Virus record (IMG/VR): IMGVR_UViG_3300032245_001163
DNA length: 64,000 nt
Reading direction: 5' to 3' (one strand)
DNA from: a virus
The translations under genes and the position numbers were made by a program. Position 1 is the first letter of the stretch; the number at the start of each line of letters is the position of its first letter. The notes beneath the pieces were generated by a model. That model was given only the letters and a program-made list of their open reading frames with translations. It had not been told where the DNA came from and ran no database searches. Shown in pieces: positions 7,780-57,027 of this stretch.

Positions 7780-7807
7780 ATTGTAGCACAAATACAACAG
7801 TTGTCAA
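7780..7807 (-). promoter_or_regulatory. Sigma70-type promoter for the gp55-gp47-gp46 operon
   Basis: Minus strand TTGACA (7807-7802), 16-nt spacer, TACAAT (7785-7780) with extended TGn. Confidence 0.72.
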
Positions 7808-38770: not shown

Positions 38771-38797
38771 AAAGGGGCAACAGCCCCTTTACTTTTT
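38771..38797 (+). terminator. Rho-independent terminator
   Basis: AAAGGGGC-aaca-GCCCCTTT hairpin followed by ACTTTTT, immediately after the structural module. Confidence 0.75.
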
Positions 38798-38816
38798 CCT
38801 GCTTTCCCTGTATAAT
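38788..38816 (+). promoter_or_regulatory. Sigma70-type promoter for the glycosylation/radical SAM operon
   Basis: TTTACT (38788-38793), 17 nt, TATAAT (38811-38816); ATG 5 nt later. Confidence 0.68.
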
Positions 38817-39130: not shown

Positions 39131-39921
39131 GTCAAGGTGTCGTAATCTTTGCGTTCAACAATGAAGCAACAGATTACATTGCCATGGCTGCATGGTCAGC
39201 TAAGAATATTCGTAGACACCTAAACTTACCAGTGGCAGTGATCACAGACAATCCTGCAGCCGCCGCTCAACACCAGTTTGAACATATCATTGCTACAGTG
39301 GCTGACACTGGTGGGTCAAGATACTTTGCGGATTACAATGCCAATGTAACTTGGCACAATGCTGGTCGCATTAATGCCTATGAACTATCACCATTTGATC
39401 AAACTTTGGTACTAGATGCTGACTATGTAATAGCCAGTGATCGATTATTGGAAGTACTAACAATACCACAACAGTTTGCAGCTTTCAAGGACGGGTTTGA
39501 TCCCAGCAGTACGACCATGCTTGAAACATTTGGTGCGTATAATATGCCCATGTGGTGGGCCACCGTAATGATGTTCCGACGTGGCAACATCAGCCAATAC
39601 ATATTTGATAGTATGCAAATGATACGAGCCAACTGGCAACATTACCGGGACTTGTACGGCATTCACCAAAGCAACTATCGCAATGACTATGCACTGAGCA
39701 TTGCCCTGGGACTGGTAGCAGGTGCTGAACAATCAGTGCATGAGATATTCTTCCCCATGCTCAACGTCATGCCAGAACACGGATTGACTTGGGTGGAACA
39801 AGATCATTATGAAATTGAATACACTAACACCGAAGGTAGACGGAAAACTTTGAGTTGGGCTGGATTAGACTTTCATGCCATGTGTAAACGGCATTTGGAG
39901 GTGATAGTTGCAGCCCACTGA
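39127..39921 (+). CDS. GT-A/GT8-like glycosyltransferase
   Basis: GVVIFAFNN, YELSPFDQTLVLDADY (DxD), YRNDYALSIA; likely TTG start at 39127. Confidence 0.68.
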   Translation: MSQGVVIFAFNNEATDYIAMAAWSAKNIRRHLNLPVAVITDNPAAAAQHQFEHIIATVADTGGSRYFADYNANVTWHNAGRINAYELSPFDQTLVLDADYVIASDRLLEVLTIPQQFAAFKDGFDPSSTTMLETFGAYNMPMWWATVMMFRRGNISQYIFDSMQMIRANWQHYRDLYGIHQSNYRNDYALSIALGLVAGAEQSVHEIFFPMLNVMPEHGLTWVEQDHYEIEYTNTEGRRKTLSWAGLDFHAMCKRHLEVIVAAH

Positions 39922-40675
39922 CGAACAAGGTTATGTGATTGTTGCAGTCAACAGCGACACAGTTGACTATCAGTCTTGTGCTAGAACCTTGGCCAAGACC
40001 ATACGCTACTGGGATCCGTCTGCACGGATTTGCCTGGTCACAGACAGCCCTTACACTGATCCCTTGTACGATCACCACAGACAACTTGTGCCACAGACCA
40101 ATCCATTTGCCAACGATGCACAGTTGTTCAAGCTCACACCATTTCGTGAAACTATCAAACTGGAAGCAGATATGTGGATAGTGAGTCCAATTGTACACTG
40201 GTGGACACAGTTTAGACATAGAGATGTTGTAATATCTACTGGCTGTAGAGATTGGCAAGACAACATCAGCACAGCGAGAAACTACAGACGAGTGTTTGAT
40301 GTGAACCATTTGCCTGATGTGTACAATGCCATCACATACTGGCGGCGTAGCGAAACTGCCAAGGAATTCTTTGGCTGGGTCAGCAACATATTTGCCAACT
40401 GGACAGAGTTTAAGAAACTCATAAAGTTTCCTGATGATGTACCATCTACTGATTTAGTGTATGCCATGGCAGCAGAGATCATGGGACGAGACCGTGTGAC
40501 CTTGCCATTCAGCACATATCCAAAGATAGTGCATATGAAACGACACATAGCAGGCACAGCCACAGAATCTTGGCTCAATGAATTAGTGTGGGAATATCAG
40601 GACTTGCGATTGCGCATACAAACTGTAGCACAAACAGGTGCGTTTCATTACAATGTAAAACAGTGGCAAGCATGA
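39908..40675 (+). CDS. GT-A/GT8-like glycosyltransferase paralog
   Basis: GYVIVAVNS, LTPFRETIKLEADM, PSTDLVYAMA; paralogous layout to the upstream gene; GGAGG before TTG. Confidence 0.62.
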   Translation: MQPTDEQGYVIVAVNSDTVDYQSCARTLAKTIRYWDPSARICLVTDSPYTDPLYDHHRQLVPQTNPFANDAQLFKLTPFRETIKLEADMWIVSPIVHWWTQFRHRDVVISTGCRDWQDNISTARNYRRVFDVNHLPDVYNAITYWRRSETAKEFFGWVSNIFANWTEFKKLIKFPDDVPSTDLVYAMAAEIMGRDRVTLPFSTYPKIVHMKRHIAGTATESWLNELVWEYQDLRLRIQTVAQTGAFHYNVKQWQA

Positions 40676-41007
40676 CACCCGAAGAATTTTGGTCCGTACT
40701 ACACAACATGCCGGAACCTCAGCTGGTATTTTATCGTTTGTATCACGATGATCAAGGCAATCCACTATTCTATAGCATGGAGGATCAGCCTGGTACATAC
40801 ATTGAGATTGACCAAGCGACTTTTGCTCTTAACTCAATGAATGTGCGTGTACGCAATGGAAAATTAGTAGAAGTAGTTTGGCAAACAACGTTTAAACTGG
40901 TCCCTGGCAACTCTGGATCCCCTTGTCATCCTGACAATGTCGCTGTAATCGTTGCTGAGGACCAACCTCATACCAAATGGAGCAAACAAACATATGAATC
41001 AAATTGA
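40672..41007 (+). CDS. Hypothetical protein
   Basis: Likely start ATG 40672 (MTPEEFW..., ATGA overlap); in operon. Confidence 0.6.
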   Translation: MTPEEFWSVLHNMPEPQLVFYRLYHDDQGNPLFYSMEDQPGTYIEIDQATFALNSMNVRVRNGKLVEVVWQTTFKLVPGNSGSPCHPDNVAVIVAEDQPHTKWSKQTYESN

Positions 41008-41920
41008 CATTGCAGACCTAGACTGCATATACTTGAGTTATGACGAACCCGACAAAGAAGAGTTTTGGGTAAAAATTAAAAACATGGTACCCTGGGCTAC
41101 TAGAGTAGATGGTGTCAAAGGATCAGATGCAGCACACAAAGCCGCGGCTGCTGCCAGTACCACTGAACGATTTGTATTGATTGACGGCGACAACATTCCT
41201 GACGCTGAGTTTTTCAATCAAACACTGACATTTGCTACACCAGAGTGGGAACAGGCAGTGTTTCGTTGGCGTGCCAGAAATCACATCAACGGACTCATGT
41301 ACGGCAATGGTGGCTTGAGTTCATGGACACGTGAGTTTGTGATGAACATGCGCACACACGAAGCCACTGACGGACGTGCGGAAACCGAAGTAGAGTTTTG
41401 TTTTGATCCCTTGTACTGGGCCATGTACGACTGCTACTCAACCACATACCCCAATGGGAGTGCATTTCAAGCCTGGCGTGCCGGATTCCGTGAAGGTGTA
41501 AAGATGTGCTTGAACAAAGGTGCTCGGCCCACTGCGGAACAATTTCAACAACAGGTGCATCAGCGTAATCTGGATCATTTGACCATATGGCACAATATTG
41601 GTGCAGATGTCAACAACGGACAATGGGCCATGGCCGGTGCTAGACAGGGCACTTACATGACCATGCTCACAAACTGGGATCACAGACTGGTACAAGACTT
41701 TGATGCACTGGCTGAAATTTGGGAAACTGTAAAAGATTCAGATCCTAGACTGTTGGGAGGGCGTGTGGCAGATGATTTGCACAGTCAACTAGACCTGCCC
41801 ATGGCCATCTTTGAAGGTGAGCAAAGTAAGTTTTTTAAACAGCACTATCGTAGTAATTGGCACAACCGTGGTGTCATGGTTAGAGAGATTGACGTTATCA
41901 GACAGCAAGAAGGCTGGTAA
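40994..41920 (+). CDS. GT-A-fold glycosyltransferase-like protein
   Basis: DCIYLSYDEP, RVDGVKGSDAAHKAAA, FVLIDGDN (DxD), NGLMYGNGG, AWRAGFREGVK; likely start ATG 40994. Confidence 0.65.
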   Translation: MNQIDIADLDCIYLSYDEPDKEEFWVKIKNMVPWATRVDGVKGSDAAHKAAAAASTTERFVLIDGDNIPDAEFFNQTLTFATPEWEQAVFRWRARNHINGLMYGNGGLSSWTREFVMNMRTHEATDGRAETEVEFCFDPLYWAMYDCYSTTYPNGSAFQAWRAGFREGVKMCLNKGARPTAEQFQQQVHQRNLDHLTIWHNIGADVNNGQWAMAGARQGTYMTMLTNWDHRLVQDFDALAEIWETVKDSDPRLLGGRVADDLHSQLDLPMAIFEGEQSKFFKQHYRSNWHNRGVMVREIDVIRQQEGW

Positions 41921-42990
41921 TGTCATATTTTACGTTGCCAACTGGATACAAACATTCGTTGAATGCTCGACCCAGGGGTAGATTGTCATCTACACCAATT
42001 CTAAACAGTTGCAACGTGCCATATCACACTGTGGTGGTTGATTTTAATTCAAATTGTTTGATATGTGGATGTGATGGTTGGCTACCAATTCCTGTGGGAC
42101 AGGTACAGGATTTTGATTCACTTGAAGATGTATGGAACAGCCCGGTTGCAAAAATATTGCAACAAGATATTGATGCTAAAAAATTTACTTGGTGTGCAGT
42201 AGAACATTGTGGTATAAAACATCGTAATGTAAACCAAACAAGATACGAATTATCCATCAATATAGATGAAAGTTGTAATTTACACTGCCCTAGTTGTCGC
42301 AGGGAACCAATAATGCATTTGTCTGGACCAGTGGTAGACAAAAAAATTCAAGATGTTGAGCGCATATTACTGTGGTTGGAATCATTTGATCAGCCCATAC
42401 ACATTGTCCTTTCTGGCAATGGTGATCCATTGGCCAGTGCAATTATTCGTCCGCTGATAAAAAAATACAAACCAAAAAATAATCAAACTTTTAAATTGTT
42501 TACCAATGGGTTGTTAATAAAAAAACAATTGACTGATACGGAAATTCTTAAAAACATATCAGAATTTTCGATCAGTGTTGATGCTGGCAGTCAAGCGGTG
42601 TATGAAAATGTAAGGCGTGGTGGTAGTTGGGCAGTGTTATTAGAAAATTTTGAATATCTAACGTCCATTAACAAAAATAACTTGGTGACGTTGAATTTTG
42701 CGGTGCAATGCAACAATTTCAAGGACTTACAAAATTTTGTTGACATCTGTAACTATTATAATTTTAATGGGCAAATCCATGGACTTGATAATTGGGGCAC
42801 CTGGAATACTGATGATGTTTTAAACCCTGATGCATGGACAATCAAAAATGGAACATTTCAACAACATGATGTGTTACACAAAGGACATGTACAATATCAG
42901 GAGTGTGTGGAAGTAATCAACAAAATTATGTCTAATCAAAATCATAAAATTAGATTCTCGTTTGATGTAAAAAATAAAATTAAACAATGA
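41920..42990 (+). CDS. Radical SAM enzyme with N-terminal Cys-rich (twitch-like) domain
   Basis: CNLHCPSC motif, GNGDPL in place of GGEP, FTNG, ISVDAG; N-terminal C...CLICGC...CAVEHC. Confidence 0.85.
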   Translation: MSYFTLPTGYKHSLNARPRGRLSSTPILNSCNVPYHTVVVDFNSNCLICGCDGWLPIPVGQVQDFDSLEDVWNSPVAKILQQDIDAKKFTWCAVEHCGIKHRNVNQTRYELSINIDESCNLHCPSCRREPIMHLSGPVVDKKIQDVERILLWLESFDQPIHIVLSGNGDPLASAIIRPLIKKYKPKNNQTFKLFTNGLLIKKQLTDTEILKNISEFSISVDAGSQAVYENVRRGGSWAVLLENFEYLTSINKNNLVTLNFAVQCNNFKDLQNFVDICNYYNFNGQIHGLDNWGTWNTDDVLNPDAWTIKNGTFQQHDVLHKGHVQYQECVEVINKIMSNQNHKIRFSFDVKNKIKQ

Positions 42991-44390
42991 TACAAAACAA
43001 AGGTGATGAATCTGTAGGAAATAAAAGCCAGTTCTTGACTTCTGCTGAGCAGATGAAAGAACAATTAGGACCCGCGCTTTGTTTGGCCAAGTGGAAACAG
43101 GTCAGTCTGCACCTCACCACAGGCATGAACAACTCATGCTACCATCCGCCACTGCACCCAATCAATCCCCAAGAGATTGCCATAGATGTATCAGCATTGC
43201 ACAATACACAGTGGAAGAAAACTGCACGTCAGATGATGTTATCAGGCGAAAAACCTGGCGAATGTCAGTACTGCTGGAACATGGAGAACGAAGGCAAGCT
43301 CAGTGACAGGCACTATCGTTCAGGCGAGCCCTGGGCCGCAGTGGACTTTGAACAAATAAAAAATAGCACAGGAGAAGAAAATGTTATCCCCAGTTATGTT
43401 GAAGTTAATTTTAATCACGCTTGTAATCTTAAGTGTAGTTATTGTAGCCCTCAGTTTTCGAGCTCATGGGCAGACGAGGTCGCACGACTGGGCGCTTTTC
43501 CTACTAGCAGTCCACACAACTCTCCTGATCATTTTATGGGACAGCGTAGACCGATACCAGCCCGAGAGTCCAACCCTTATGTTGACGCCTTCTGGTCCTG
43601 GTGGCCAAGCCTGTACCCTCACCTAGAACATTTCCGTATGACTGGTGGTGAGCCACTGCTGGATAAGAACACATATCGTGTGTTTGACTATGTGTTAGAG
43701 AATCCCAATCCTCGCCTGCACTTAAATGTTACCAGCAACTTTAGTGTAGATGAAAAGTCATGGCAAAAGTATTTGAGTTATGTAAAGCAAATATGTGATG
43801 GACGCATTGAACACTTCATGCAGTATGTAAGTCTAGATGGCTGGGGCGAACAAGCCGAATACATGCGCAATGGTCTGGACTTTAATCTGCTGTGGGACCG
43901 GGTCAACCAATTTCTTACAGAAGTTCCTAATTATTCTAGCCTGACGTTTATCATCACAATGAACAACTTGAGTGTGACCAGCTTAGATAAGTTATTTGCT
44001 GGCATTCTAGGACTGCGTAAAGTTTACAGCAATACCTATCAACGTGTGTGGTTTGACACACCTGTGTTGCGTGAACCTGCTTGGCAGAGCCTGCAGATTT
44101 TGCCTGAAAGTTATGCTGAAAAACTGGAATGGTTGTGGGCATGGATGGTGCGACAGATTGAAACAGAAGAAGCACCGTTCAAAGGATTCAAAGACTATGA
44201 ACTGCATAGATTGGATCGAGACATTGCTTGGATGCGGTCTGCACAGTTAACTGACCACACTCAAGCAAAAGCAGACTTTTATCGTTTCTTCAGTGAACAT
44301 GATCGACGTCGCGGCACAGACTTTTTAAAGACATTTCCAGAGATGAAGTCATGGTGGGAGGAGTGTGCGTACCATGCTAGGCAATCGTAA
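42987..44390 (+). CDS. Radical SAM enzyme with N-terminal twitch/SPASM-like domain
   Basis: CLAKW...SCYHP...CQYCW; CNLKCSYC; TGGEPL. Confidence 0.88.
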   Translation: MIQNKGDESVGNKSQFLTSAEQMKEQLGPALCLAKWKQVSLHLTTGMNNSCYHPPLHPINPQEIAIDVSALHNTQWKKTARQMMLSGEKPGECQYCWNMENEGKLSDRHYRSGEPWAAVDFEQIKNSTGEENVIPSYVEVNFNHACNLKCSYCSPQFSSSWADEVARLGAFPTSSPHNSPDHFMGQRRPIPARESNPYVDAFWSWWPSLYPHLEHFRMTGGEPLLDKNTYRVFDYVLENPNPRLHLNVTSNFSVDEKSWQKYLSYVKQICDGRIEHFMQYVSLDGWGEQAEYMRNGLDFNLLWDRVNQFLTEVPNYSSLTFIITMNNLSVTSLDKLFAGILGLRKVYSNTYQRVWFDTPVLREPAWQSLQILPESYAEKLEWLWAWMVRQIETEEAPFKGFKDYELHRLDRDIAWMRSAQLTDHTQAKADFYRFFSEHDRRRGTDFLKTFPEMKSWWEECAYHARQS

Positions 44391-45477
44391 AATCATTGTG
44401 GATGAGTGGGCTGAAGTATGGGACTTGCTCAAGACTCATGCGGATGGCAGTTTCTGGCAGTGGTCAGATGTCGAGCTTGATCCTAACAACGTGTATATTG
44501 TTGGACGTGTGATACTAAAAGACAACTGGACAGAGATAACAGAGTGGGCACGACAGTATCCTGGACGCATTGTGTTTTCAAATCCTGCAGAAGGCAGTGA
44601 AACCATACTGTTGCAACTCACACGCTTGCGAATCAAAGAACAAGTTCGTCGCGGCGACATCTTGTTGCTGACATCAGGCGACTTGGAGCCAGGCTGGCAC
44701 TACTGCAAAACAGACTGCTACTTCTCCAACATTGTAGAATACTTGGAAAACTTACGTGCGCATGAGTCTCATCCGCAGGTGTATCATAGAACCAACAAGC
44801 CCTACGACTTCCTGTTCCTAAACGGACGACTGCGTCCACATCGCAAGTACTTGATAGATGCCATGCGTGATCGACGGTTGTTGGATCGAGCACTATGGAC
44901 CAATCTCAATGACCGTGTAGAAATGGCCTGGAGCAGTCGACTACAAACTAGCCAGTCCGAACCCGTTAGATTGTTGCCCCCACAGTACGAAATTGATCGT
45001 GCGTTACCTAACATGGACAATGTACCAACAGGATTTGTAAAGCATCATTTGTTTGGTAATACCTGGGGCGATGCTGAAATCAATCCTGCGGCCTACATTG
45101 ATACCTATTTCAGTGTGATTACAGAAACTATCTACGACTACCCATATACATTTCGTACAGAGAAAATTTGGAAGCCCATGATCATGGGGCATCCATTTGT
45201 TGTAGCAGCCAACCGCGGATACTATAAAGATTTGCATAATGCGGGATTTCAAACATTTGGACATTTAATAGATGAGAGCTTTGATCAAATTGATGATCCC
45301 TCTGATCGTGCCAATAGAATAGTAGACACAGTGGCGGATATATGTTATAATGGTGCTGCCAGTTTCTTGGAGAGTGCTAGATCTGTTTGTAAATACAACT
45401 ATCAACAACTTCGCGAACACAATCGTCGCGAACGTGCAGAACTCCCAGAACGTTTGGCCCAATACATCAATGAATGA
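44374..45477 (+). CDS. GT10-like ('TEK' motif) glycosyltransferase-like protein
   Basis: FLFLNGRLRPHR, YFSVITET...FRTEKIWKPMIMGHPF, GFQTF..LIDESFD; ATG 44374 after GGAGGAG. Confidence 0.58.
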   Translation: MLGNRKIIVDEWAEVWDLLKTHADGSFWQWSDVELDPNNVYIVGRVILKDNWTEITEWARQYPGRIVFSNPAEGSETILLQLTRLRIKEQVRRGDILLLTSGDLEPGWHYCKTDCYFSNIVEYLENLRAHESHPQVYHRTNKPYDFLFLNGRLRPHRKYLIDAMRDRRLLDRALWTNLNDRVEMAWSSRLQTSQSEPVRLLPPQYEIDRALPNMDNVPTGFVKHHLFGNTWGDAEINPAAYIDTYFSVITETIYDYPYTFRTEKIWKPMIMGHPFVVAANRGYYKDLHNAGFQTFGHLIDESFDQIDDPSDRANRIVDTVADICYNGAASFLESARSVCKYNYQQLREHNRRERAELPERLAQYINE

Positions 45478-46813
45478 TTTAGAATTTAAACAACAGGTGT
45501 TAGATCCTGTATCCGCAAGTTTTTGTGCAGCAAAATGGTACAATGCTACCATTTGGTTAGGAAGTGGGCAGACCACAAGTTGCCATCACCCGCCAGCCCA
45601 TTTGGTGGACATTGATAAAGTCCGGCTCAACTCTAGGCTGCTGCACAATACCGATCAGAAAAAAGCGGACCGGCAACAAATGTTGGCAGGCGAACGTCCA
45701 GCAGGCTGTGAATACTGCTGGAAGATCGAAGACATGGACACCAACGCTGTGAGTGACCGTGTGTACAAATCAAAAATTTATCCCATAGAGGCACTACATG
45801 AAGCAGTTAAAACTCCCGTCGAAGATGATGTCGATCTTAGAACACTGGAAATCAGTTTCGATCGCACTTGTCAATTTGCTTGTTCTTATTGTAATCCTGC
45901 TTTTAGTTCCACTTGGGTCAATGATATACGCAAGCATGGACCCTACAACGGGTTGGTTAGCGATGGTAGGAACCATTTTACTCACACTCATGATAGCAGT
46001 CAACTTTATAAATTCGGTGAGACTAATCCTTACGTGGAAGCCTTCTTTGACTGGTGGGAACGAGACCTCCACAGAACCCTCCAAGAACTCCGAATAACCG
46101 GCGGCGAACCACTGATGTCAGGCTACACTTGGAAGCTAATAGAATGGTTCAAAGCCAATCAAGGACGTAGCAACACCCGGTTGGCAATCAATTCAAATCT
46201 TGGCATTGACATGGACAAGATGAAAGATTTTGCTGTAGCAGTTGCCACGTTGCCCAAGGTGGATTTGTATACCTCAATGGAAGCAACTTGGACACAGGCT
46301 GAATATATTCGTGATGGATTGGATTACGATCAGTGGCTGAAGAATGTGCTGTTTTTGTTGGAAGGTCGATTTGTCAATGCTGTGCATGTGATGTGTACCA
46401 TCAATGCATTGTGCTTGGACAGCCTTGTGGATCACCTCAACCTGATGTTGAGTCTGAAACAACGCTATGGACGAGATCAAATCAACTTCACACTGAACAT
46501 CTTGCGTTTCCCCAGTTTCCAAAGCGCCCTAGTATTGCCTGATCACATACGCAATCGTTATCGCTTGCAGTTGGAAGCATGGTTGTTTCACAATAGAGAA
46601 AATCCTTGTTTGCACGAACATGAAGTAAATCATGTACAACGATTAATTGATTATCTTGATGTGGTAAAAACTCCACACAGTGAAGCATTTGAAATGCCTA
46701 AATTGTTAAATGACTTCCGACAGTTCTACACACAATATGACCAACGCAGAGACAAAGTGTTTGCTGAAGCATTTCCCAACTTAACAGAATGGTATGACTC
46801 AATACAAGTATAA
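45470..46813 (+). CDS. Radical SAM enzyme with N-terminal twitch/SPASM-like domain
   Basis: CAAKW...SCHHP...CEYCW; CQFACSYC; TGGEPL; likely start ATG 45470. Confidence 0.88.
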   Translation: MNDLEFKQQVLDPVSASFCAAKWYNATIWLGSGQTTSCHHPPAHLVDIDKVRLNSRLLHNTDQKKADRQQMLAGERPAGCEYCWKIEDMDTNAVSDRVYKSKIYPIEALHEAVKTPVEDDVDLRTLEISFDRTCQFACSYCNPAFSSTWVNDIRKHGPYNGLVSDGRNHFTHTHDSSQLYKFGETNPYVEAFFDWWERDLHRTLQELRITGGEPLMSGYTWKLIEWFKANQGRSNTRLAINSNLGIDMDKMKDFAVAVATLPKVDLYTSMEATWTQAEYIRDGLDYDQWLKNVLFLLEGRFVNAVHVMCTINALCLDSLVDHLNLMLSLKQRYGRDQINFTLNILRFPSFQSALVLPDHIRNRYRLQLEAWLFHNRENPCLHEHEVNHVQRLIDYLDVVKTPHSEAFEMPKLLNDFRQFYTQYDQRRDKVFAEAFPNLTEWYDSIQV

Positions 46814-48056
46814 CAGCACTGACTTGGTTCGTCCCACGGAACTGACCGAACGTGAACAATTCTTGTTGACTGAGTCAAAAACGTTTTGCATATACCCATG
46901 GATACATTTGCATGCTTATCCCACAGGAGAAGCGTATCCGTGCTGCCATGCCGAAATGTCAGTGGGCCCAGTGGGCAACTGTCGTAAAAATACCCTGGCA
47001 GAAATTTGGCAAGACACTCCCATGCAACAACTGCGTGAAGACATGTTGAGTGAAACCCCAAACGCTGCCTGTGGTCGTTGCTATGAACAAGAAAGCAATG
47101 GCTTTTTCAGTGGTCGTAAGAGTGCAAACAAACATCACGGACATCAAATCAAAAAACTGGAAACAAATCCTTTTGAAATGACCTATTGGGATATTCGGTT
47201 CTCAAACTTGTGCAATCTAAAATGCCGTAGTTGTGGACACATATTCAGCAGTCAATGGTATCAAGATCAAGCCAAATTGGCTGGCGATGATTGGAAGGAT
47301 CGCAATACAGTGTTGAACTATGCAGGACGCACTGAAACAGACATGTGGGAACAATTAGAACCACACTTGGATTATGTAGAACAAATTTACTTTGCTGGTG
47401 GCGAACCATTGTTGATGGAAGAGCACTATCGTATTCTTGATGAATTGGTCAAGCGCAGCCTGTTCCATGTGAGATTGATATACAACACAAATTTCACTCA
47501 CACCGATCTCAAAGGCCGGAGTGTGTTTGAATACTGGAAGTTGTTTGACAGGGTGGCTGTGGGAGCCAGTTTAGATGGTACAGAAGACTATGCTGAATAC
47601 ATACGCAAGGGCACAGACTGGCATCAAGTAGAACGCAACCGTGTTGAAATGCTCAAAATTTGCCCAGGTGTTGATTTTTACATCAGTCCTACCTTGAGTA
47701 TTCTAAATGCACGACACTTGCCTGAGTTTCATCGTAGCTGGGTAGAACGTGGATTGATTCAGCCACAGGACTTAAATGTTAACATTTTACAAGATCCTGC
47801 GCATTACAGAATAGACATTGCACCTGCAGAATACAAACAAGAATTGAGCACAAGATATTTGAATCACATCATGTGGCTGCGTGATCAAGATCCCCTGGGC
47901 CGTGCCACACAGGGGTTTGAATCAGCTATTACTTTTATGAATGCCACAGACAATACACACTTGATTGATACATTCTGGCGCAAGACACATGAACTAGATG
48001 AAATCAGAAAAGAAAACATCATGGAAGTAATTCCAGAACTAGCAGCATTGAAATGA
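46794..48056 (+). CDS. Radical SAM enzyme with N-terminal twitch/SPASM-like domain
   Basis: CIYPW...GEAYPCC...CGRCY; CNLKCRSC; AGGEPL. Confidence 0.9.
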   Translation: MTQYKYNSTDLVRPTELTEREQFLLTESKTFCIYPWIHLHAYPTGEAYPCCHAEMSVGPVGNCRKNTLAEIWQDTPMQQLREDMLSETPNAACGRCYEQESNGFFSGRKSANKHHGHQIKKLETNPFEMTYWDIRFSNLCNLKCRSCGHIFSSQWYQDQAKLAGDDWKDRNTVLNYAGRTETDMWEQLEPHLDYVEQIYFAGGEPLLMEEHYRILDELVKRSLFHVRLIYNTNFTHTDLKGRSVFEYWKLFDRVAVGASLDGTEDYAEYIRKGTDWHQVERNRVEMLKICPGVDFYISPTLSILNARHLPEFHRSWVERGLIQPQDLNVNILQDPAHYRIDIAPAEYKQELSTRYLNHIMWLRDQDPLGRATQGFESAITFMNATDNTHLIDTFWRKTHELDEIRKENIMEVIPELAALK

Positions 48057-49432
48057 GCACCTGGAAAGAATTCTACACACAAGTTCGAGATCCCAGTTGG
48101 CCTGATTGTGAAACTGAATTAGAATTTGATCATCTACCACAGCATATTCAAACTGAATGCATTGAAAATTTTGGATATGTGCCTGGTAGTTTTAAAAACA
48201 AATCCAAATTGATCAACAAAAGATTTCCTATTGTATCTGACACTGCTTGCCAGTTGAAATGGAATTGGAGTACAATTTATCTTACTACAGAAAATACTGC
48301 TAGTTGTCATAGAACAAATCATCATAAGTTTGATACGCAAACATTTGATTTTCATAATACTCCTTCTAAACTAGACGACCGTGCAAAAATGCTTCAAGGT
48401 CAATGGCCAAAAAGAGGATGCGAATATTGCCAAGATATTGAAAAAGCCAATGGGCAAAGTGATAGAATAACAAATCTGGACTTTCCTGGAATCCATGCAC
48501 CCAAAGAACTTGAACAAAATATCAATGCAATTCATGTTACTCCTAGAATGCTGGAAGTGTATTTTGATAACACCTGTAATTTAAAATGTTTATACTGCGG
48601 TCCACATTTTAGCAGTTTATGGGACGCCGAAAATATCAAATTTGGACAGCCTGCATTTGTAAAAAGCAAAGAAATCAACAATAACAAACAAAAATTATTT
48701 GAATGGTTGAGAATTCACAGACAAGATCTTGCAGTGTTTAACATATTAGGTGGTGAGCCGTTGTATCAACCTGAATTAGAACAATGTTTAGAGTTGTTTG
48801 AACAATATCCAGCACCTGAATTAAAATTACAAATATTCACAAATTTAAATGCTCGGTTGCCTTATCTGCAAAAAATAATTCAACGTGTGAAAACATTGAT
48901 TGACAATGAATGCATTAGAGAATTTGAAATTACTGCCAGTTTGGACTGCTGGGGAACTCCTCAAGAGTATGTTAGATACCCTTTGGATTTGCAACAGTGG
49001 GAAAACAACTTTGAATATCTGGTCAATGAATCCTGGATTAATTTGATTGTAAATTCGACCATTACACCATTGACCGTAAAAACACTGCCTGAGTTATTGC
49101 AAAAAATAAATGCATGGAGTGAAAAAAGAAAAATTTATCATTATCAAAATTCTGTAAACGGTCCCAATTACATGTTTATAGATATTTTTGGAGATATTTT
49201 TCAAGAAGATTTTGCTAGAGCCATTGCATTAAAACCTAACCGTACGCCTGAAGAAATAGCCAGCAAAAATTACCTAATTGGTATTGCTAAACAAAGCAGC
49301 CACAGCGGACCAAAGCCAAAAGAAATACGACAATTATTTGATTTTTTAAATACCATGGATCATCGTCGAAATACCCATTGGCCCACAGTGTTTCCTTGGC
49401 TAGTAGATGAATTTGACAAATACAAATTATGA
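48053..49432 (+). CDS. Radical SAM enzyme with N-terminal twitch/SPASM-like domain and short extra N-terminal module
   Basis: WKEFYTQVRDPSWPDC leader; CQLKW...SCHR...CEYC; CNLKCLYC; LGGEPL. Confidence 0.88.
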   Translation: MSTWKEFYTQVRDPSWPDCETELEFDHLPQHIQTECIENFGYVPGSFKNKSKLINKRFPIVSDTACQLKWNWSTIYLTTENTASCHRTNHHKFDTQTFDFHNTPSKLDDRAKMLQGQWPKRGCEYCQDIEKANGQSDRITNLDFPGIHAPKELEQNINAIHVTPRMLEVYFDNTCNLKCLYCGPHFSSLWDAENIKFGQPAFVKSKEINNNKQKLFEWLRIHRQDLAVFNILGGEPLYQPELEQCLELFEQYPAPELKLQIFTNLNARLPYLQKIIQRVKTLIDNECIREFEITASLDCWGTPQEYVRYPLDLQQWENNFEYLVNESWINLIVNSTITPLTVKTLPELLQKINAWSEKRKIYHYQNSVNGPNYMFIDIFGDIFQEDFARAIALKPNRTPEEIASKNYLIGIAKQSSHSGPKPKEIRQLFDFLNTMDHRRNTHWPTVFPWLVDEFDKYKL

Positions 49433-50634
49433 ACATACCACACGATAAATTTTGTGTATTACCTTGGATCAGCATCGAAGCCTCGCCTGTTGGTACTGTG
49501 CGTCCTTGTTGTCTTGCTGATGATGAAATCCTAGACGATTCAGGCAACAAGTTCGAGTTAAGCACGGCTGACTTTGCTGACATACAGAACAGTAATCATA
49601 TGCGCAAGTTGCGTGAACAATTTCTTGCTGGTGAACGCCCACAAACATGTCGCAAGTGTTGGAATGAAGAACGTGGCGGCCGTACCAGCAAACGCATGCA
49701 TACCCTGGATAGACTCAAGCATAGTATTGCGGACACAGAGTGGACTGCGGATGCCAAGCCCTTGATGTTTTTGGATTTGAAACTAGGCAACATTTGCAAC
49801 TTAAAGTGTCGTATATGCGGCTCATGGAGCTCAAGTCAATTTGCCACAGAAGACATTAATCAACTACCACGTGAACAACAAAAGTCAAGTCATGCATATC
49901 AAATGCTACGTGCTGGCGCCTGGCCTAGAGAGAATGTTCAGTTCTGGCAACAGATAGATTCAGTACTAACAGACATTCGCTATATTGAATTCACTGGTGG
50001 CGAGCCGTTCATGATTGATGAACACTTTGACATGTTGCAAGGTATCATTGATCGTGGCATCGCACATCAAGTTGAAATACACTACAACACCAACGGCACA
50101 CAATATCCTGCTCGTGGTCAAGCAATTTGGCAACATTTTAAAACTGTAGAAATTGCATTTAGCATTGACGACATAGGCGAAAGATTTGAGTATCAACGCA
50201 CCAATGCAGACTGGGCAGTGGTACTGGACAATATCACAAGTTTTCAGTATCTAAAAACTCAAATGCCCAACTTGCAATTACAATGTTGTAGCACTGTGAA
50301 TGTGTTCAATGTGCGCTACATTGATGAACTGGCTCGTTGGACTGTGTTGCAAGGATTTGACTTTGTGTACTGGAACATGATGCATGATGCTTGGTACTTT
50401 AGTATTGCCACGCTGCCAGACACGGCCAAAGCCAGCATAACAGAACATTTGCGTACAGCAGATGTACCAGCACAGTATCGTGCGGAGTTTGATCGCATCA
50501 TGGACTTTATGAACACTGGTGCGTCAACAGATGGGTTTATGACACGCATGAAAATTGCAGACTTGGATCGCAAACGCAATCAAAACTTGCGCACAGTTGA
50601 ACCTGAACTTGCTGAGTTGATTGGGTATGAGTAA
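49429..50634 (+). CDS. Radical SAM enzyme with N-terminal twitch/SPASM-like domain
   Basis: CVLPW...GTVRPCC...CRKCW; CNLKCRIC; TGGEPF; YNTNGT. Confidence 0.9.
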   Translation: MNIPHDKFCVLPWISIEASPVGTVRPCCLADDEILDDSGNKFELSTADFADIQNSNHMRKLREQFLAGERPQTCRKCWNEERGGRTSKRMHTLDRLKHSIADTEWTADAKPLMFLDLKLGNICNLKCRICGSWSSSQFATEDINQLPREQQKSSHAYQMLRAGAWPRENVQFWQQIDSVLTDIRYIEFTGGEPFMIDEHFDMLQGIIDRGIAHQVEIHYNTNGTQYPARGQAIWQHFKTVEIAFSIDDIGERFEYQRTNADWAVVLDNITSFQYLKTQMPNLQLQCCSTVNVFNVRYIDELARWTVLQGFDFVYWNMMHDAWYFSIATLPDTAKASITEHLRTADVPAQYRAEFDRIMDFMNTGASTDGFMTRMKIADLDRKRNQNLRTVEPELAELIGYE

Positions 50635-51607
50635 AATAAAACTAATTTACAGCACTACCACACATCCTTGTTTTACACAAGGGTTTGTGCGTGAATTGGT
50701 AGATGAGTATTTTGATCTAGTTGAGTATGATCCAAACAACACATATTCTCCACAAGACACTGTGGTGCTACAAACACACATCGGGGTGTTACAATCGCAG
50801 CCTTGGCACATGCATTTGGTAAAACAAGGATTCAAAACTGTTGTTGATCACTTATGGGACAGTGATGTAGATACTCCTAGCATGATCAAAAACAATGCGT
50901 TGATATTACGCAACGGCAATTGGTTGTGGTATCGAGAAAGCATGCATTATCAGTTCATGGGATATGATCAGTATCAACCTCAGCGCAATTACCAACATGC
51001 ATTCTTTATGCCAATAAACAAGGCAAGATCACACAAAGATCTGGTAATTGAAAGGTTAGCACCTGTGCTAGATCAAGGACTATACAGTTATGCTGAACGT
51101 GGACGAATGTTGCCCAATGACTTTGATAGAGAGCAACAAGGATACTGGCTGTATTATTTCAATCCCGAATGGTACAACACAACTTGTTTCAGTGTAGTGG
51201 TTGAATCTTACATGCGAAGTATGGCATGGCAACGCAATCCAGAGGTCCCAAATTATAAAACTGAGATATCAGAAAAAAGTTTCAAACCCATAGCATACCG
51301 TCATCCATTTATTACATTTGGCAGTGTTGATACCATGAAATATTTGCAACGTACAGGATTTGCTACTTTTGATAATCTATGGGACGAAAGTTATGACAGT
51401 ATTATTGATGATGATAAAAGGCATCACGCTGTGGCTCAAACAGTGATTAACGCAGTCAAAGAATACAGTTGTGGTAATTTAAAATTTGATAATCTAACCG
51501 AAGAAAAATTACAACACAATCATGCAAGATTCTTTGACATGGCGTTGGTCAAGCAACGTTTCCGAACAGAAATCATTGGAGACGTATTGTCTTACATAAA
51601 CTCATGA
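50627..51607 (+). CDS. GT10-like ('TEK' motif) glycosyltransferase-like protein
   Basis: CFSVVVES...ISEKSFKPIAYRHPFI..G, GFATFDNLWDESYD; likely start ATG 50627. Confidence 0.55.
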   Translation: MSKIKLIYSTTTHPCFTQGFVRELVDEYFDLVEYDPNNTYSPQDTVVLQTHIGVLQSQPWHMHLVKQGFKTVVDHLWDSDVDTPSMIKNNALILRNGNWLWYRESMHYQFMGYDQYQPQRNYQHAFFMPINKARSHKDLVIERLAPVLDQGLYSYAERGRMLPNDFDREQQGYWLYYFNPEWYNTTCFSVVVESYMRSMAWQRNPEVPNYKTEISEKSFKPIAYRHPFITFGSVDTMKYLQRTGFATFDNLWDESYDSIIDDDKRHHAVAQTVINAVKEYSCGNLKFDNLTEEKLQHNHARFFDMALVKQRFRTEIIGDVLSYINS

Positions 51608-52209
51608 AACAAATATACGTTTGTGGCGATAGTTTTTGTGTGCCAGATCCTGAGTATGGTCCATGTTGGGTTGACCTGCTATCACAACACCGCACAGTGG
51701 TCAATCTAGCACAGGTCAGTGCTACCAATTTGTTGATCAGTCAGCAAGTGGATCAAGCCATTGCTGAGTCAGCAGACTTTGTGATAGTACAAGGTACCAG
51801 TTGCACACGCAGTGAAACCAGATACAACGGAAAGGTTGTGCCTTACAGTTTTCTCACCGCCAATGCTACCACTACCAAATTCAATGACCGCCAATTACGC
51901 ATCATACAGGAATATTACACAGAATTTTTTGATTTAGATTTGGCAATATATCACAATCAGTGTATAATACAAAATACTTTGCAAAAATTAATAGACAGTG
52001 GTATATCATTCCGGTTTGATCAAGGCGGGTTTGAACACGCTAAATTTGGAGCCGCACAGTCAGATTACTTTGCAAAGTTCGACAGTTATCGCAGTGCAAT
52101 AAATTTATGGGATCATGCAGACACAAGAGACTACAGACCATACTATCATATTCGTGATGCCAAAGTGCATCAACGTGTAGCACAGTATTACATCAAGGAA
52201 ACTGAATGA
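51604..52209 (+). CDS. SGNH/GDSL-like hydrolase or acyltransferase
   Basis: N-terminal YVCGDSF, VNLAQVSATN, C-terminal YH...HQRVA. Confidence 0.55.
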   Translation: MKQIYVCGDSFCVPDPEYGPCWVDLLSQHRTVVNLAQVSATNLLISQQVDQAIAESADFVIVQGTSCTRSETRYNGKVVPYSFLTANATTTKFNDRQLRIIQEYYTEFFDLDLAIYHNQCIIQNTLQKLIDSGISFRFDQGGFEHAKFGAAQSDYFAKFDSYRSAINLWDHADTRDYRPYYHIRDAKVHQRVAQYYIKETE

Positions 52210-53153
52210 AAAAAGTATTGGTATGCGGTGCAGGTGGATTTATAGGCAGTCATCTTGTGCGAAGTTTAAAAGCACAAGGGCACTATGTGGTTGGCGCTGA
52301 CCTCAAACTGCCAGAATTCAGTACAACAGGTGCAGATGAATTCTATCAAGTTGACTTGCGCAATCAGCGCCAAGTTACCAAGTTGATTACCTCGGACATG
52401 GACGAAATATATCAACTGGCAGCAGACATGGGTGGTGCAGGATTTGTGTTTGTGGGCAACAATGACGCAGACATCATGCACAACAGTGCGCTAATCAATT
52501 TGAATATCCTGCATGAGATCACATTCAAAAAGACCCCTAGGATTTTTTACAGTAGCAGTGCCTGTATGTACCCTGCACACAATCAACTAGATCCTGACAA
52601 TCCCATGATGACCGAAGCCAGTGCATACCCTGCTGATCCTGACAGTGAATACGGTTGGGAAAAGTTATTCAGTGAGCGACTGTATCAGGCATTTGCTAGA
52701 AACCACGGCATAGATGTGCGCATTGCCAGACTGCACAATGTTTTTGGTCCCGAAGGTACCTGGCAAGGCGGTAGAGAAAAAGCACCTGCTGCCTTGTGCC
52801 GCAAAGTGGCAGAGAGTTCGGGCACAGTAGATGTGTGGGGACCGGGCACACAAACACGCAGTTTCATGTACATTGATGACTGCATTGAAGGCATACACAG
52901 ACTCATGGCCAGTGATTATTCCATGCCTATCAACATAGGGTCGGATCGTATGATATCCATCAATGACTTAGTGCAATTGATTGCCAACATAGCCGGTAAA
53001 AATATAGATATCAACAACATACCTGGACCTGTGGGAGTAATGGGACGCACCAGCGACAATACGCTGATCCATCAGATACTGGGCTGGGCACCACCAGACA
53101 GTTTAGAAGCAGGTTTGGAAAAAACTTATCGCTGGATTGAGTCGCAACTATGA
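52206..53153 (+). CDS. GDP-mannose 3,5-epimerase-like NAD-dependent epimerase
   Basis: GAGGFIG, LAADMGGAGF, YSSSACMYP, YGWEK (YxxxK), GTWQGGREKAPAALCRK, all characteristic of the GME subfamily. Confidence 0.85.
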   Translation: MKKVLVCGAGGFIGSHLVRSLKAQGHYVVGADLKLPEFSTTGADEFYQVDLRNQRQVTKLITSDMDEIYQLAADMGGAGFVFVGNNDADIMHNSALINLNILHEITFKKTPRIFYSSSACMYPAHNQLDPDNPMMTEASAYPADPDSEYGWEKLFSERLYQAFARNHGIDVRIARLHNVFGPEGTWQGGREKAPAALCRKVAESSGTVDVWGPGTQTRSFMYIDDCIEGIHRLMASDYSMPINIGSDRMISINDLVQLIANIAGKNIDINNIPGPVGVMGRTSDNTLIHQILGWAPPDSLEAGLEKTYRWIESQL

Positions 53154-54427
53154 GTTTATGCATGGCACCTTGGGTGCATACTTATTTGAGTCCACTGACA
53201 GAACGGCGTATGTGCTGCGCCAGTCGTGAACCTGCACAAAACTTTCGACAATATATAGACACTGAATCAGGAAGCAATCGATATATTCCTATCACGCTGG
53301 ACGAACATTGGAACTCTCCACACATGATGAGTGTGCGTAGTAGAATGATGGCAGGTGAAACCTTGCCTGAGTGCGAAGTATGTAATGACAAACTGTTGAA
53401 CACTGACGTTTACCGTACATATTTTTGGCAGTTGTTCAAACATAAGTATCCTGACATCTGGGAAACCACAAACACAGCAGGCCGTACTACAATGCAGCCT
53501 GTGAGTTGGGATTATAGATTCTCCAACTTGTGCAATTTCAAATGTAGAACCTGCGGTGATATGTTGAGTTCAAGTTGGGAAAGTGAACAACGACAGCACA
53601 ACATGATTGAGTGGACGGATCCCAACAACAACTGGATGCGCCCTGAAGTAAGATCGGCTATCTCAGCTTTTCAAGACAGTCAGATCGAGCAAGAGTTTGC
53701 TGATGCTGTGGAACAGCATCGTGTTGAAGAAGTATATTGGGTAGGTGGCGAACCACTAATGTACGAACAACATTGGCGTTATATGAAACGCATAGTTGAA
53801 TTAGGGGATGGTCCAAAAGTATATGCTAGATACAATACAAATTTATCCAGAGTGGATTATCGAGGTGTTAACTTATATCGCGATATTCTCAGTGGGCTGC
53901 GTGATTGGCAGATATGTGCAAGTCTCGACGGCACAGGCTCAATTGGTGAATACATTAGAACAGGCCTTGAGTATGATCAATGGCTTGACCATTTCAGTCA
54001 AGCAGTTGAGATCCAACATAACAGACGTCAAGTACGAATTGACTTTACGCTCACTCTGCCCGGAATGTTCGAAATTACACGCATTAGACAACTTGCCCAA
54101 CAATTCGGAGTCGAAGTCCTTGCTAAAGTAATGTTTTCTTTTTCGCCCAACATTGTGATGAGCCCATTGGCTTTGCCTAGATCACTGTTAGAGCCTTGGA
54201 TAGATGAACTTGTACCTGAAGTGGATGGTGCTCTGCGTGATATGTTGTTGCAATTAAAAACACGGCCCACATTCGAAGAACAATGGCCAGACACTTACCG
54301 TCAAGGTCTTGTAAGTGGACGGGATCGTGTGCTACAATTAGAAAGCATACGCACACAGAAGATCACCATGGCTGAAATACTAGCTGATCGTCCTGCGGTG
54401 CTAGAATGGTGGAACAACATTGCTTGA
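53150..54427 (+). CDS. Radical SAM enzyme with N-terminal twitch/SPASM-like domain
   Basis: CMAPW...RRMCC...CEVC; CNFKCRTC; VGGEPL; YNTN. Confidence 0.88.
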   Translation: MSLCMAPWVHTYLSPLTERRMCCASREPAQNFRQYIDTESGSNRYIPITLDEHWNSPHMMSVRSRMMAGETLPECEVCNDKLLNTDVYRTYFWQLFKHKYPDIWETTNTAGRTTMQPVSWDYRFSNLCNFKCRTCGDMLSSSWESEQRQHNMIEWTDPNNNWMRPEVRSAISAFQDSQIEQEFADAVEQHRVEEVYWVGGEPLMYEQHWRYMKRIVELGDGPKVYARYNTNLSRVDYRGVNLYRDILSGLRDWQICASLDGTGSIGEYIRTGLEYDQWLDHFSQAVEIQHNRRQVRIDFTLTLPGMFEITRIRQLAQQFGVEVLAKVMFSFSPNIVMSPLALPRSLLEPWIDELVPEVDGALRDMLLQLKTRPTFEEQWPDTYRQGLVSGRDRVLQLESIRTQKITMAEILADRPAVLEWWNNIA

Positions 54428-55445
54428 TAGAATTGAAATAGATCTGCGCGGAGCAGACACACTTACACTGCACATAGATGTTGCAGACAACAGCCTTAGT
54501 CGTAAATGGCTGACAGCGTTAAACAACATCATCCGCAACAACCTACACTTGGAAAAAAACTACTGCTGGATGGGCTGGACAGAAAGTGAACGCAATGCTG
54601 AATATATCATTGATCAAATCAATACCAGCATCTCTGCAATTAACTCTGCCAACTTGGGTTATACCATCAACGATCATTTTACTGTAGCAGAAACCATACA
54701 AGACAATTTGGATGTTGACCATGAGCGTATGAATTGGTTGCATCGTTATTTTGAAGATCTGCAAGGACACTCGGGACACATGAGTCCGTATTGGCAACAA
54801 GCAGATACTGCCACACGCTGGCACATACGTCAACTGAACTTGTTGTGCCACGAATACGAAAGTCTTGTGCTGAGCATGCGCAAGGTCTTGCAAGCACCCG
54901 AGTGGCGCAGACCCAGCCAACTCATGTGCTGGCTCAATGCACCACGTTTTGCATTGGACACAGAAGATTATGAACTGTTTGGAATAGAAACAATCAACAG
55001 ACAAATGGGCGGAGTTTATGTGGGTGTGAACAAAGCAGTGGGCAAAGCACACTGGGAAGTTTTCAATGACGAAGGTCGCAGTGTGGATGAATTAATAACC
55101 ACTGGCATGCGCAATCAAACTGAGGCCGCTGGCGATTTTGATGTTGAGTGGGCACGTGATCCTGGTGCATATCATTGGCAAATTAAGAAGTTAGCTGATT
55201 TTCGTGTCTGGTTGATCAACAATGGATTTGATCCTGAAGACCGTAGTTTAACTATTGGTCATCCCAAAGTGGCACAAGTCAATTTGACCAAATCGTTTGG
55301 TACATTAGACTACAATCAAATTTGGCAACAACTTTCTGCTTGCCTCGACGTATATAAAATACGCACCAGCGACGCTGAAGCTACATATGAATATCGCTGG
55401 AGTGATCCAGACTATGCTGATCAGCAAATAAGGAGACTGACATGA
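54420..55445 (+). CDS. Hypothetical protein in the tailoring operon
   Basis: 341-aa ORF overlapping both neighbours; LHRYFE and LCHEYE helical motifs; no family recognised. Confidence 0.7.
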   Translation: MLDRIEIDLRGADTLTLHIDVADNSLSRKWLTALNNIIRNNLHLEKNYCWMGWTESERNAEYIIDQINTSISAINSANLGYTINDHFTVAETIQDNLDVDHERMNWLHRYFEDLQGHSGHMSPYWQQADTATRWHIRQLNLLCHEYESLVLSMRKVLQAPEWRRPSQLMCWLNAPRFALDTEDYELFGIETINRQMGGVYVGVNKAVGKAHWEVFNDEGRSVDELITTGMRNQTEAAGDFDVEWARDPGAYHWQIKKLADFRVWLINNGFDPEDRSLTIGHPKVAQVNLTKSFGTLDYNQIWQQLSACLDVYKIRTSDAEATYEYRWSDPDYADQQIRRLT

Positions 55446-55543
55446 AATGGCTAAGAAGAATGTGGGACAGAATTACACTGGAAATACGCTATCGTAAAAA
55501 ATTACGTGAACTTCGCAAACGAGATCCATTTATCTACAAATGA
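55442..55543 (+). CDS. 33-aa basic peptide preceding the carbamoyltransferase (not in ORF track)
   Basis: MKWLRRMWDRITLEIRYRKKLRELRKRDPFIYK; AAGGAG RBS; ATGA overlaps at both ends. Confidence 0.78.
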   Translation: MKWLRRMWDRITLEIRYRKKLRELRKRDPFIYK

Positions 55544-57027
55544 ATATATTGGGCATCAGTGCTGGCTTTCATGACGCCGCAGCCACAGTAATCAATCGCT
55601 CTGGTGATATATTGTTCGCCGGTCATGCAGAACGTTATAGCAAATGCAAAAATGACGCTGACTTTGACAGCGCATTTGTACGTGAACTAGAACGCTACAA
55701 TCCCATTGATACTGTGGCTTATTACGAACGTCCTTGGGCCAAACAACTGCGACAGTTGTATGCTGGACAAGGCATAGAGTGGGATAAACTAAGAGTAAAA
55801 AGCATAGTGCATCAACAGATAGGCCATGCCAACTGGTGGGATATTCAACACTATCACAATTACAATCATCATTTATCACATGCAGCCGGCGGATTTCAAA
55901 CTTCACCGTTTGATCGCGCCACAGTTGTGGTAATTGATGCCATAGGCGAGTGGGACACAATATCAATCTGGGGAGCAGAGTATGACGGAAAAGGACGAGC
56001 AAGATACCGGCGACTATGGGGACAACGATACCCTCACAGCCTGGGTCTCTTTTATAGTGCAATTACTAAGCGTGTGGGCCTACACCCACTAGACGAAGAA
56101 TACATCACCATGGGCATGGCTGCTTATGGCGATGATCATTATCATGATCTCATGGAAGCAGTGCTGATCAGTGATCCCACTACTGCGGAGTTCAAACAAA
56201 ACTTACACGCCGGAGTCAGCGATACTTTTATGGGCGGATTGGATGATGTGGACATCGCTGCTGCCGCTCAACGAATGTTAGAACGCTTGATAGGCAATAT
56301 CATGCGTCGGGCCAGAGACTTTGGTTGGAGCACTAATCTTGTGTATCAAGGTGGTGTTGCACTCAACTGCTTGGCCAATAGACGACTAGGAAAATATTTT
56401 GAAAACATCTGGATCATGCCCAACCCCGGCGACGCTGGTTCAAGCCTTGGCGCCGCTGCCCTTGCGTATGGTAAAAGGCTGCATTGGAATAATGCTTACC
56501 TTGGTTATAATATCCCTGGCTCTTATCCTGTTGACAATCTTGTCCGCGGTTTACTTCACGATCGTATTGTTGGGGTGGCTAGTGGGCGTGCCGAATTTGG
56601 GCCTAGAGCTTTGGGAAATAGGAGCCTACTCGCGGACCCGAGAGGGCCAGAAATAAAAGCACAGGTAAATGCGATCAAACGTAGACAACAATTCAGACCC
56701 TTTGCGCCGGTCATACTGGCTGAACTAGCCAATGACTACTTTGACATGCAGTCTGGCTGGCATACTCACAGTTATATGCAGTCAGTCGCTCGTTGCCGCC
56801 AACCTGACGTTTACCCTGCTATATGTCATGTTGATGGTACCAGTAGAGTACAAACAGTGGGGGCGGATGGATCAGGAATAAGACAGTTATTGGAAGCATG
56901 GTATGCTCGAACAGGTTGCCCTATGTTGCTCAACACCAGTTTGAACATACGTGGCGAACCCATGGTCAACAATCGTGCGGATGCTGATCGTTTTGAAACA
57001 CTGTATGGTGTAAAGGTATATTCATGA
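55540..57027 (+). CDS. Carbamoyltransferase, CmcH/NodU/TobZ family
   Basis: ILGISAGFHDAAA, HHLSHAA, IDAIGE, GGVALNC, GDAGSSLGAA, EFGPRALGNRS, FRPFAP, HVDGTSRVQTV, LNTSLN. Confidence 0.95.
   Translation: MNILGISAGFHDAAATVINRSGDILFAGHAERYSKCKNDADFDSAFVRELERYNPIDTVAYYERPWAKQLRQLYAGQGIEWDKLRVKSIVHQQIGHANWWDIQHYHNYNHHLSHAAGGFQTSPFDRATVVVIDAIGEWDTISIWGAEYDGKGRARYRRLWGQRYPHSLGLFYSAITKRVGLHPLDEEYITMGMAAYGDDHYHDLMEAVLISDPTTAEFKQNLHAGVSDTFMGGLDDVDIAAAAQRMLERLIGNIMRRARDFGWSTNLVYQGGVALNCLANRRLGKYFENIWIMPNPGDAGSSLGAAALAYGKRLHWNNAYLGYNIPGSYPVDNLVRGLLHDRIVGVASGRAEFGPRALGNRSLLADPRGPEIKAQVNAIKRRQQFRPFAPVILAELANDYFDMQSGWHTHSYMQSVARCRQPDVYPAICHVDGTSRVQTVGADGSGIRQLLEAWYARTGCPMLLNTSLNIRGEPMVNNRADADRFETLYGVKVYS

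Follow-up and report, generated by a model that had tools for sequence, protein, structure and literature searches.

A conserved array of radical SAM enzymes with a predicted N-terminal twitch domain in giant T4-like phages, and its possible role in carbohydrate tailoring

What use would a phage have for a whole row of radical S-adenosylmethionine (SAM) enzymes? The question is raised by a 64-kb stretch of viral DNA, IMG/VR record IMGVR_UViG_3300032245_001163 (the window below), from an uncultured giant T4-like lake phage. Seven intact radical SAM genes lie within 12.5 kb of this window (41920-54427), and an eighth, likewise intact, is found at 5345-6859; genes are named here by their first coordinate. 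The answer that we favor, with a probability of about 0.55, is that the array is a tailoring line in which radical SAM enzymes modify a carbohydrate, either a nucleoside diphosphate (NDP)-sugar or a growing glycan or glycoconjugate.

A preliminary description of the window had reported the array as enzymes that each carry a Cys-rich domain ahead of the CxxxCxxC motif of the radical SAM core, and this holds for all eight proteins. Pfam Radical_SAM matched every one of them, starting past residue ~115-230, and Pfam SPASM was detected N-terminal of the core in four: 46794 (E 4e-11, residues 32-97), 5345 (3e-9, residues 130-192), 49429 (4e-6) and 41920 (5e-4, a match that falls below the gathering score). 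When the eight sequences were aligned, Cys was invariant at three positions of the N-terminal domain and at C119, C123 and C126, which make up CxxxCxxC, while G168 and P170 of the GGEP-type motif were conserved. The alignment divides the proteins exactly as had been described, into a CxxPW..CC..CxxC subtype (46794, 49429, 53150 and 5345) and a CxxKW..SC[YH]..CxYC subtype (42987, 45470 and 48053), with 41920 as an outlier in which GGEP is replaced by GNGDP. One correction is needed: the 12.5 kb also hold five genes that do not encode radical SAM proteins (44365, 50621, 51604 and 52206, with 54420 downstream).

We then asked what the N-terminal domain is. The NCBIfam model NF033640 (N_Twi_rSAM, "twitch domain-containing radical SAM protein"; curated cut-off, 170 bits) matched seven of the eight proteins from end to end (220-390 bits; model positions ~1-397), and 41920 scored only 36.9 bits. 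A single sequence used as the query found no match in the PDB. A profile built from 70 diverse N-domain sequences and searched against all PDB chain sequences gave a sole significant match, residues 165-239 of BtrN (E 3.5e-7), which form the C-terminal twitch domain of that enzyme. Cys169, Cys187, Cys232 and Cys235 of BtrN (chain numbering) align with the first Cys of the family, with its CC/SC position (to within one residue) and with both Cys residues of CxxC. Among 55-62 unique orthologs of each core paralog (defined below; 64-97% identity), conservation of the four twitch and three core Cys residues is 100%. The top PDB match among the profile comparisons, 8VPO, a cyclopropyl synthase acting on a ribosomally synthesized and posttranslationally modified peptide (RiPP), was rejected as a relative, its similarity being confined to the core.

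SPASM and twitch domains are described as lying C-terminal of the barrel in the RadicalSAM.org perspective (PMC9477430), which notes in a passing remark that some megacluster-1-1 members, without structures, carry N-terminal Cys residues. The C-terminal placement of the BtrN type is not what we found: in 46794 the domain occupies residues ~28-110 and CxxxCxxC lies at 140-147. Each enzyme is thus predicted to hold two clusters, one bound by CxxxCxxC at which SAM binds and a second, Cys4-ligated [4Fe-4S] site in an N-terminal twitch domain homologous to that of BtrN. As judged by the profile match and the conserved residues, the permuted twitch architecture is real, strongly constrained and already catalogued. 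The earlier proposal of a permuted radical SAM family is therefore upheld as to the permutation; that the architecture is already that of a curated NCBIfam family tells in part against the proposal, though literature searches on NF033640 and "N-terminal twitch" found no paper, biochemical characterization or solved structure.

An AlphaFold2 model of 46794 (predicted local distance difference test score [pLDDT], 95.4) places a barrel at residues ~130-340, after the twitch domain, and a helical C-terminal cap at 345-420. The best matches of the barrel were BlsE (Z 12.9), anSMEcpe (12.5) and CteB (12.3); together, BlsE, anSME, CteB and MoaA span Z 11.7-12.9 over 211-227 aligned residues. Since these matches are tied, they give no hint of function. 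SkfB, SuiB and viperin were further matches, and the alignments cover the core only.

Which of these genes are core and which accessory was judged from related phages. We mapped 80 related phage loci gene by gene, 59 of which reach from 40952 to the carbamoyltransferase gene 55540. In all 59, five radical SAM genes (42987, 45470, 46794, 49429 and 53150; the core types) are kept in the same order. There are five radical SAM genes in 43 of these loci, six in 13 and seven in 3; the gene 41920 occurs in 2 and orthologs of 48053 in 3, and the slots of both are filled in other strains by other radical SAM or transferase genes. Five whole related phage genomes in IMG/VR (342-353 kb, one with terminal repeats) hold 6-9 members each above the NF033640 cut-off. 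Within a phage, the five core types share only 20-30% identity.

The family is not confined to phages. It comprises ~10,000 clusters (50% identity) at E<=1e-3 and 1,308 at E<=1e-30, tandem fusions included, and its bacterial members come from Bacteroidota, Bdellovibrionota, Elusimicrobia (many copies), Paenibacillus and others. A Bacteriovoracaceae metagenome-assembled genome (MAG), L090, has eight copies within 12 kb, an array that we take as genuine chromosome because obg, rsfS and rplU adjoin it; 14 of 41 relatives of this MAG have 1-8 copies. In a maximum-likelihood tree, every phage core type clusters with its own bacterial sequences and not with the other phage types, and 41920 belongs to a sister clade of N_Twi (99% support) whose bacterial members adjoin N_Twi genes. 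By reciprocal best hits, the five core types correspond to five different L090 genes at 36-51% identity (Table 1).

The preliminary description had called the family phage-expanded. The data do not bear this view out, given core types that are only distantly alike, a separate ortholog for each in the bacterial eight-gene array, and further arrays in Bdellovibrionota and Elusimicrobia. A set in which each type has its own bacterial ortholog would predate the phages, and on this evidence the five core types are, as far as their sequences tell, an old set travelling together and common to predatory bacteria and phages. The fixed order in every relative and the one-to-one match in a bacterial array point to a multistep radical pathway rather than redundancy. 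Separately, an Elusimicrobia MAG (CAIRTQ01) contains >30 N-twitch radical SAM open reading frames (ORFs) on at least 15 contigs, in head-to-tail runs; many of them have 600-1100 codons and are extended at the N terminus.

What would such a pathway act on? The array is part of an 18-kb phage operon (~38.8-57.0 kb; the island), in which about seven other genes encode proteins resembling glycosyltransferases and further ones encode an O-carbamoyltransferase of the NodU type and NDP-sugar enzymes. Sugar or glycan tailoring is the best reading because GT-B-like genes are interleaved with the radical SAM genes, and GT-A-like genes, the NodU-like carbamoyltransferase and NDP-sugar enzymes flank them. 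An AlphaFold2 model of 44365 (pLDDT 95.4) had GT-B enzymes as all 50 of its 50 best PDB chains, with Z 11-12.8 over the whole chain; the list includes T4 beta-glucosyltransferase (Z 12.6), T4 alpha-glucosyltransferase, fucosyltransferases, SenB and WaaG. The family of 44365 had no sequence match in Pfam, NCBIfam or PDB and, among the loci compared, is restricted to phage-type contigs; going by the predicted model, it is a new GT-B glycosyltransferase-like family. For the products of 39070, 39908 and 40952, DxD motifs suggest GT-A-like enzymes, and 40952 has a weak Glyco_tranf_2_3 match (E 0.008). The nearest NCBIfam model to 52206, an NDP-sugar SDR, is Fcl (118.7 bits, under its cut-off); this gene, the carbamoyltransferase gene and 62538, which encodes a PseC-like aminotransferase, count in favor of a carbohydrate.

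The neighbors of bacterial N_Twi genes include genes for carbamoyltransferase, glycosyltransferases of families GT4 and GT2, UbiA and NDP-sugar epimerase; homologs of the phage carbamoyltransferase adjoin them in six loci, as do close homologs of 52206, and in a Bacteroidota MAG the order is radical SAM, carbamoyltransferase, GDSL-like, UbiA, GT4 and epimerase. Profile searches found no partner in Bdellovibrionota arrays for any island gene outside the radical SAM group. Two further points favor a carbohydrate: the twitch relative, BtrN, acts on a sugar-like substrate, and the nearest barrels include that of the sugar decarboxylase BlsE.

If the island tailors a carbohydrate, the 5'-deoxyadenosyl radical would take a hydrogen from one defined sugar C-H, and the twitch cluster would accept or return an electron, giving a keto, epimerized, deoxy or C-C-linked product. 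Each of the five ancient core types would carry out a different step, and strain-to-strain variety in the product would come from the accessory radical SAM copies and the glycosyltransferases; candidate acceptors are a virion fiber, the host envelope or a free metabolite. That the paralogs would differ in the sugar position they modify, as suggested earlier, is plausible in the context of glycosyltransferases, carbamoyltransferase and NDP-sugar enzymes. A bolder and distinctly more doubtful proposal is that the five core enzymes are an ancient, co-inherited pathway that predatory bacteria share with giant phages abundant in aquatic habitats, and that this pathway would perform serial, oxygen-independent C-H functionalization of one carbohydrate scaffold, with the permuted twitch cluster as electron conduit, and would yield an undescribed class of radical-edited glycans.

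Several observations weigh against a carbohydrate. The GT-A-like assignments are motif-based only; no sugar gene lies within 17 kb of the eight-gene L090 array; the context of the Paenibacillus gene is lipid-like, with genes for acyl carrier protein (ACP), two ketosynthases (KS), a ketoreductase (KR), a phosphopantetheinyl transferase (PPTase) and a GT2 enzyme; the tied structural neighbors of 46794 include peptide maturases; and no NF033640 family member with a known substrate was found. Three alternatives are each much less likely. In the first, the enzymes would act on a lipid or on the lipid moiety of a glycolipid, for instance in C-C coupling or in the tailoring of acyl or prenyl chains. 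Besides the Paenibacillus locus, it could account for the UbiA and GDSL-like genes that accompany the Bacteroidota MAG gene, and there is weak similarity to Tes and GDGT-MAS. However, that similarity is generic to the radical SAM core, and no acyl-carrier, KS or prenyl gene was found in the phage island by Pfam and other profile scans, so that we consider a lipid substrate unlikely.

Modification of a peptide or protein is about as unlikely. The enzymes would be RiPP-like, or would introduce cross-links or epimerized residues into virion proteins such as the neighboring 5173-residue protein, and the sugar genes would serve a separate function. Most characterized SPASM/twitch enzymes use peptide substrates, the best structural matches of 46794 include anSME, CteB, SkfB and SuiB, and the island lies directly 3' of tail-fiber-like genes. 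The operon also contains a highly conserved micro-ORF of 33 codons, coupled via ATGA overlaps to 54420 and the carbamoyltransferase gene on either side and preceded by an AAGGAG ribosome-binding site at 55430-55435; its C-terminal 21 residues (...EIRYRKKLKELRKRDPFIYK) are almost invariant in ~35 relatives, a conservation far above that of its neighbors. Its coupling is to the carbamoyltransferase, though, and it was not found in bacterial arrays; the carbamoyltransferase is truncated, and the micro-ORF may encode a small subunit of it. Moreover, the N-terminal domain is twitch-like and not like a RiPP recognition element (RRE), with BtrN as its sole PDB relative (no dedicated RRE search was made), and in bacteria the five types are also found where no phage structural protein accompanies them. 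The 5173-codon ORF itself follows the baseplate wedge gene and precedes the tail-fiber-like genes, and its residues 1-2446 have no Pfam match.

Slightly less probable still is hypermodification of phage DNA or nucleotides, with glycosyltransferases decorating bases and radical SAM enzymes remodeling the attached sugar or nucleotide. In its favor, the top eight fold matches of the GT-B family include both T4 glucosyltransferases (beta and alpha) and a DNA glycosyltransferase of phage HY126 (PMC13326640), the conserved island promoter is sigma-70-like and not late-type, and there is weak profile similarity to viperin, MoaA and QueE. Against it, dozens of GT-B enzymes that do not act on DNA tie with these fold matches, and a thymidylate-synthase homolog (PF00303), with which both known phage routes to glycosylated pyrimidines begin (PMC13326640), was looked for without success in three related phage genomes of 97-100% completeness, a control being found in 10 of 14 genomes. 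An aminoglycoside-like cluster was also considered and rejected, as no ORF among those searched had a Pfam match to an enzyme of the 2-deoxy-scyllo-inosose/dehydroquinate (DHQ) synthase type.

A hint of how the island is expressed comes from its head, where a terminator hairpin is followed by a promoter. Both are kept in relatives, and changes in the stem are compensatory. The -10 box ends ~6 nt before the ATG of 38822, a spacing which suggests that this first island gene is leaderless. Late T4-type promoters (TATAAATA; TAAATA boxes) precede the structural genes, and none of the TATAAATA type was found before the island. The island promoter is unlike the TAAATA boxes, which suggests transcription by host sigma, before the late phase.

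The remaining features of the window are collected in Table 1. The 51604 protein had no family match in Pfam and other profile scans, and we infer from its GDS block, which is typical of SGNH esterases and acyltransferases, that it may be SGNH-esterase-like. For 54420, present in 57 of the 59 loci, no match was found in Pfam, NCBIfam or PHROGs and nothing usable came from the ESM Atlas. The eighth radical SAM gene, 5345, has an Mre11-like gene on one side and the late sigma factor gene on the other.

Table 1. Features of the 64-kb window; E values are those of Pfam matches unless stated otherwise, and identities are to the L090 ortholog
Feature	Coordinates	Strand	Description	NF033640 (bits)	L090 ortholog (identity)
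5345	5345-6859	-	Eighth N-twitch radical SAM; ~125-residue N-terminal extension	264.5	
gp55-like	6856-7797		Late sigma factor gene		
SbcCD-like genes	within window				
Baseplate hub gene	within window				
gp6-like	16185-19661		Baseplate wedge gene; PHROG E 2e-275		
5173-codon ORF	19661-35182	+	See text		
Terminator and promoter	38771-38816	+	Head of island; hairpin, then sigma-70-like TTTACT-17-TATAAT		
39070, 39908, 40588, 40952	within 39070-41920	+	Core genes, conserved in relatives; 39070 and 39908 are paralogs		
41920	41920-42990	+	Accessory radical SAM, sister clade to N_Twi; N-terminal twitch-like domain (C31, C46/49/51, C92/97); Radical_SAM 2e-11		
42987	42987-44390	+	Core N-twitch radical SAM, type 1/5; CxxKW..SC..CxYC	320.8	L090_10859 (48%)
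44365	44365-45477	+	GT-B fold glycosyltransferase-like; TEKxFKP motif; three paralogs (50621, 58269, 59386)		
45470	45470-46813	+	Core N-twitch radical SAM, type 2/5	287.7	L090_12346 (51%)
46794	46794-48056	+	Core N-twitch radical SAM, type 3/5	389.8	One L090 gene (within 36-51%)
48053	48053-49432	+	Accessory N-twitch radical SAM; variable slot between types 3 and 4	220.2	
49429	49429-50634	+	Core N-twitch radical SAM, type 4/5	338.3	L090_9208 (36%)
50621	50621-51607	+	Accessory GT-B-like paralog of 44365; phmmer E 1e-10 to 1e-19 vs paralogs; variable among relatives		
51604	51604-52209	+	Accessory 201-residue protein; starts MKQIYVCGDSF; N-terminal GDS motif		
52206	52206-53153	+	Accessory NAD-dependent NDP-sugar epimerase/reductase, GDP-fucose-synthase-like; Epimerase 8e-44		
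53150	53150-54427	+	Core N-twitch radical SAM, type 5/5	265.5	L090_5401 (43%)
54420	54420-55445	+	Core protein		
Micro-ORF	55442-55543	+	33 codons, between 54420 and 55540		
55540	55540-57027	+	Core NodU/CmcH-type carbamoyltransferase; Carbam_trans_C 3e-48, Carbam_trans_N 3e-35		
58269	58269-59420	-	GT-B-like, by paralogy		
59386	59386-60564	-	GT-B-like, by paralogy		
62538	62538		PseC-like aminotransferase		

No match to cultured phages was obtained with megablast. The same phage island is present, at 80-82% identity, on two contigs (183 and 148 kb) of a "Haliscomenobacter sp." MAG (NZ_JBBAKG01), which is either a binning artifact or a hint of the host. A cultured phage, Vibrio phage K566/K567 (K566, OZ196521.1:160-168 kb), has four distant N-twitch radical SAM genes consecutively, without GT-B or carbamoyltransferase partners, and could serve as an experimental model; Ralstonia phage RsoM2USA, also culturable, has a single member of the family.

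The NF033640 family is large (~1,300 clusters at E<=1e-30) and abundant in freshwater and marine phages, and solving it would add radical SAM chemistry and show a twitch cluster working ahead of the barrel. For the phage, the island amounts to ~5% of a giant genome, which is probably spent on a glycan, with accessory genes varying between strains like surface antigens.

How do these proteins compare with known systems? The layout of N-terminal twitch domain, barrel and helical C terminus is common to the NF033640 model and seven of the eight phage proteins; NF033640 is a sequence model only, and the fixed five-type set and the phage and glycosyltransferase context lie outside its definition. 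BtrN, the 2-deoxy-scyllo-inosamine dehydrogenase of butirosin biosynthesis (PDB 4M7S/4M7T), oxidizes the alcohol of an aminocyclitol, and four Cys residues ligate its auxiliary cluster (PMC10337720). The likeness lies in the twitch domain, where the four auxiliary-cluster Cys residues align, whereas BtrN has this domain after the barrel and the phage family has it before the barrel and adds a helical C-terminal domain; the BtrN barrel is not specifically related, being missing from the top 50 fold matches of 46794. BlsE, anSMEcpe, CteB and MoaA, the best barrel matches (14-21% identity), belong to the SPASM/twitch clade of radical SAM enzymes and have C-terminal auxiliary domains. T4 beta-glucosyltransferase, alpha-1,3-fucosyltransferase, SenB and WaaG share the two-Rossmann GT-B fold with the 44365 family, which differs from such enzymes in that its sequence matches no Pfam, NCBIfam or PDB family. 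What is new relative to all of these is the specific homology to the BtrN twitch domain, the fixed five-type set with its one-to-one bacterial orthologs, and the partnership with a new GT-B family.

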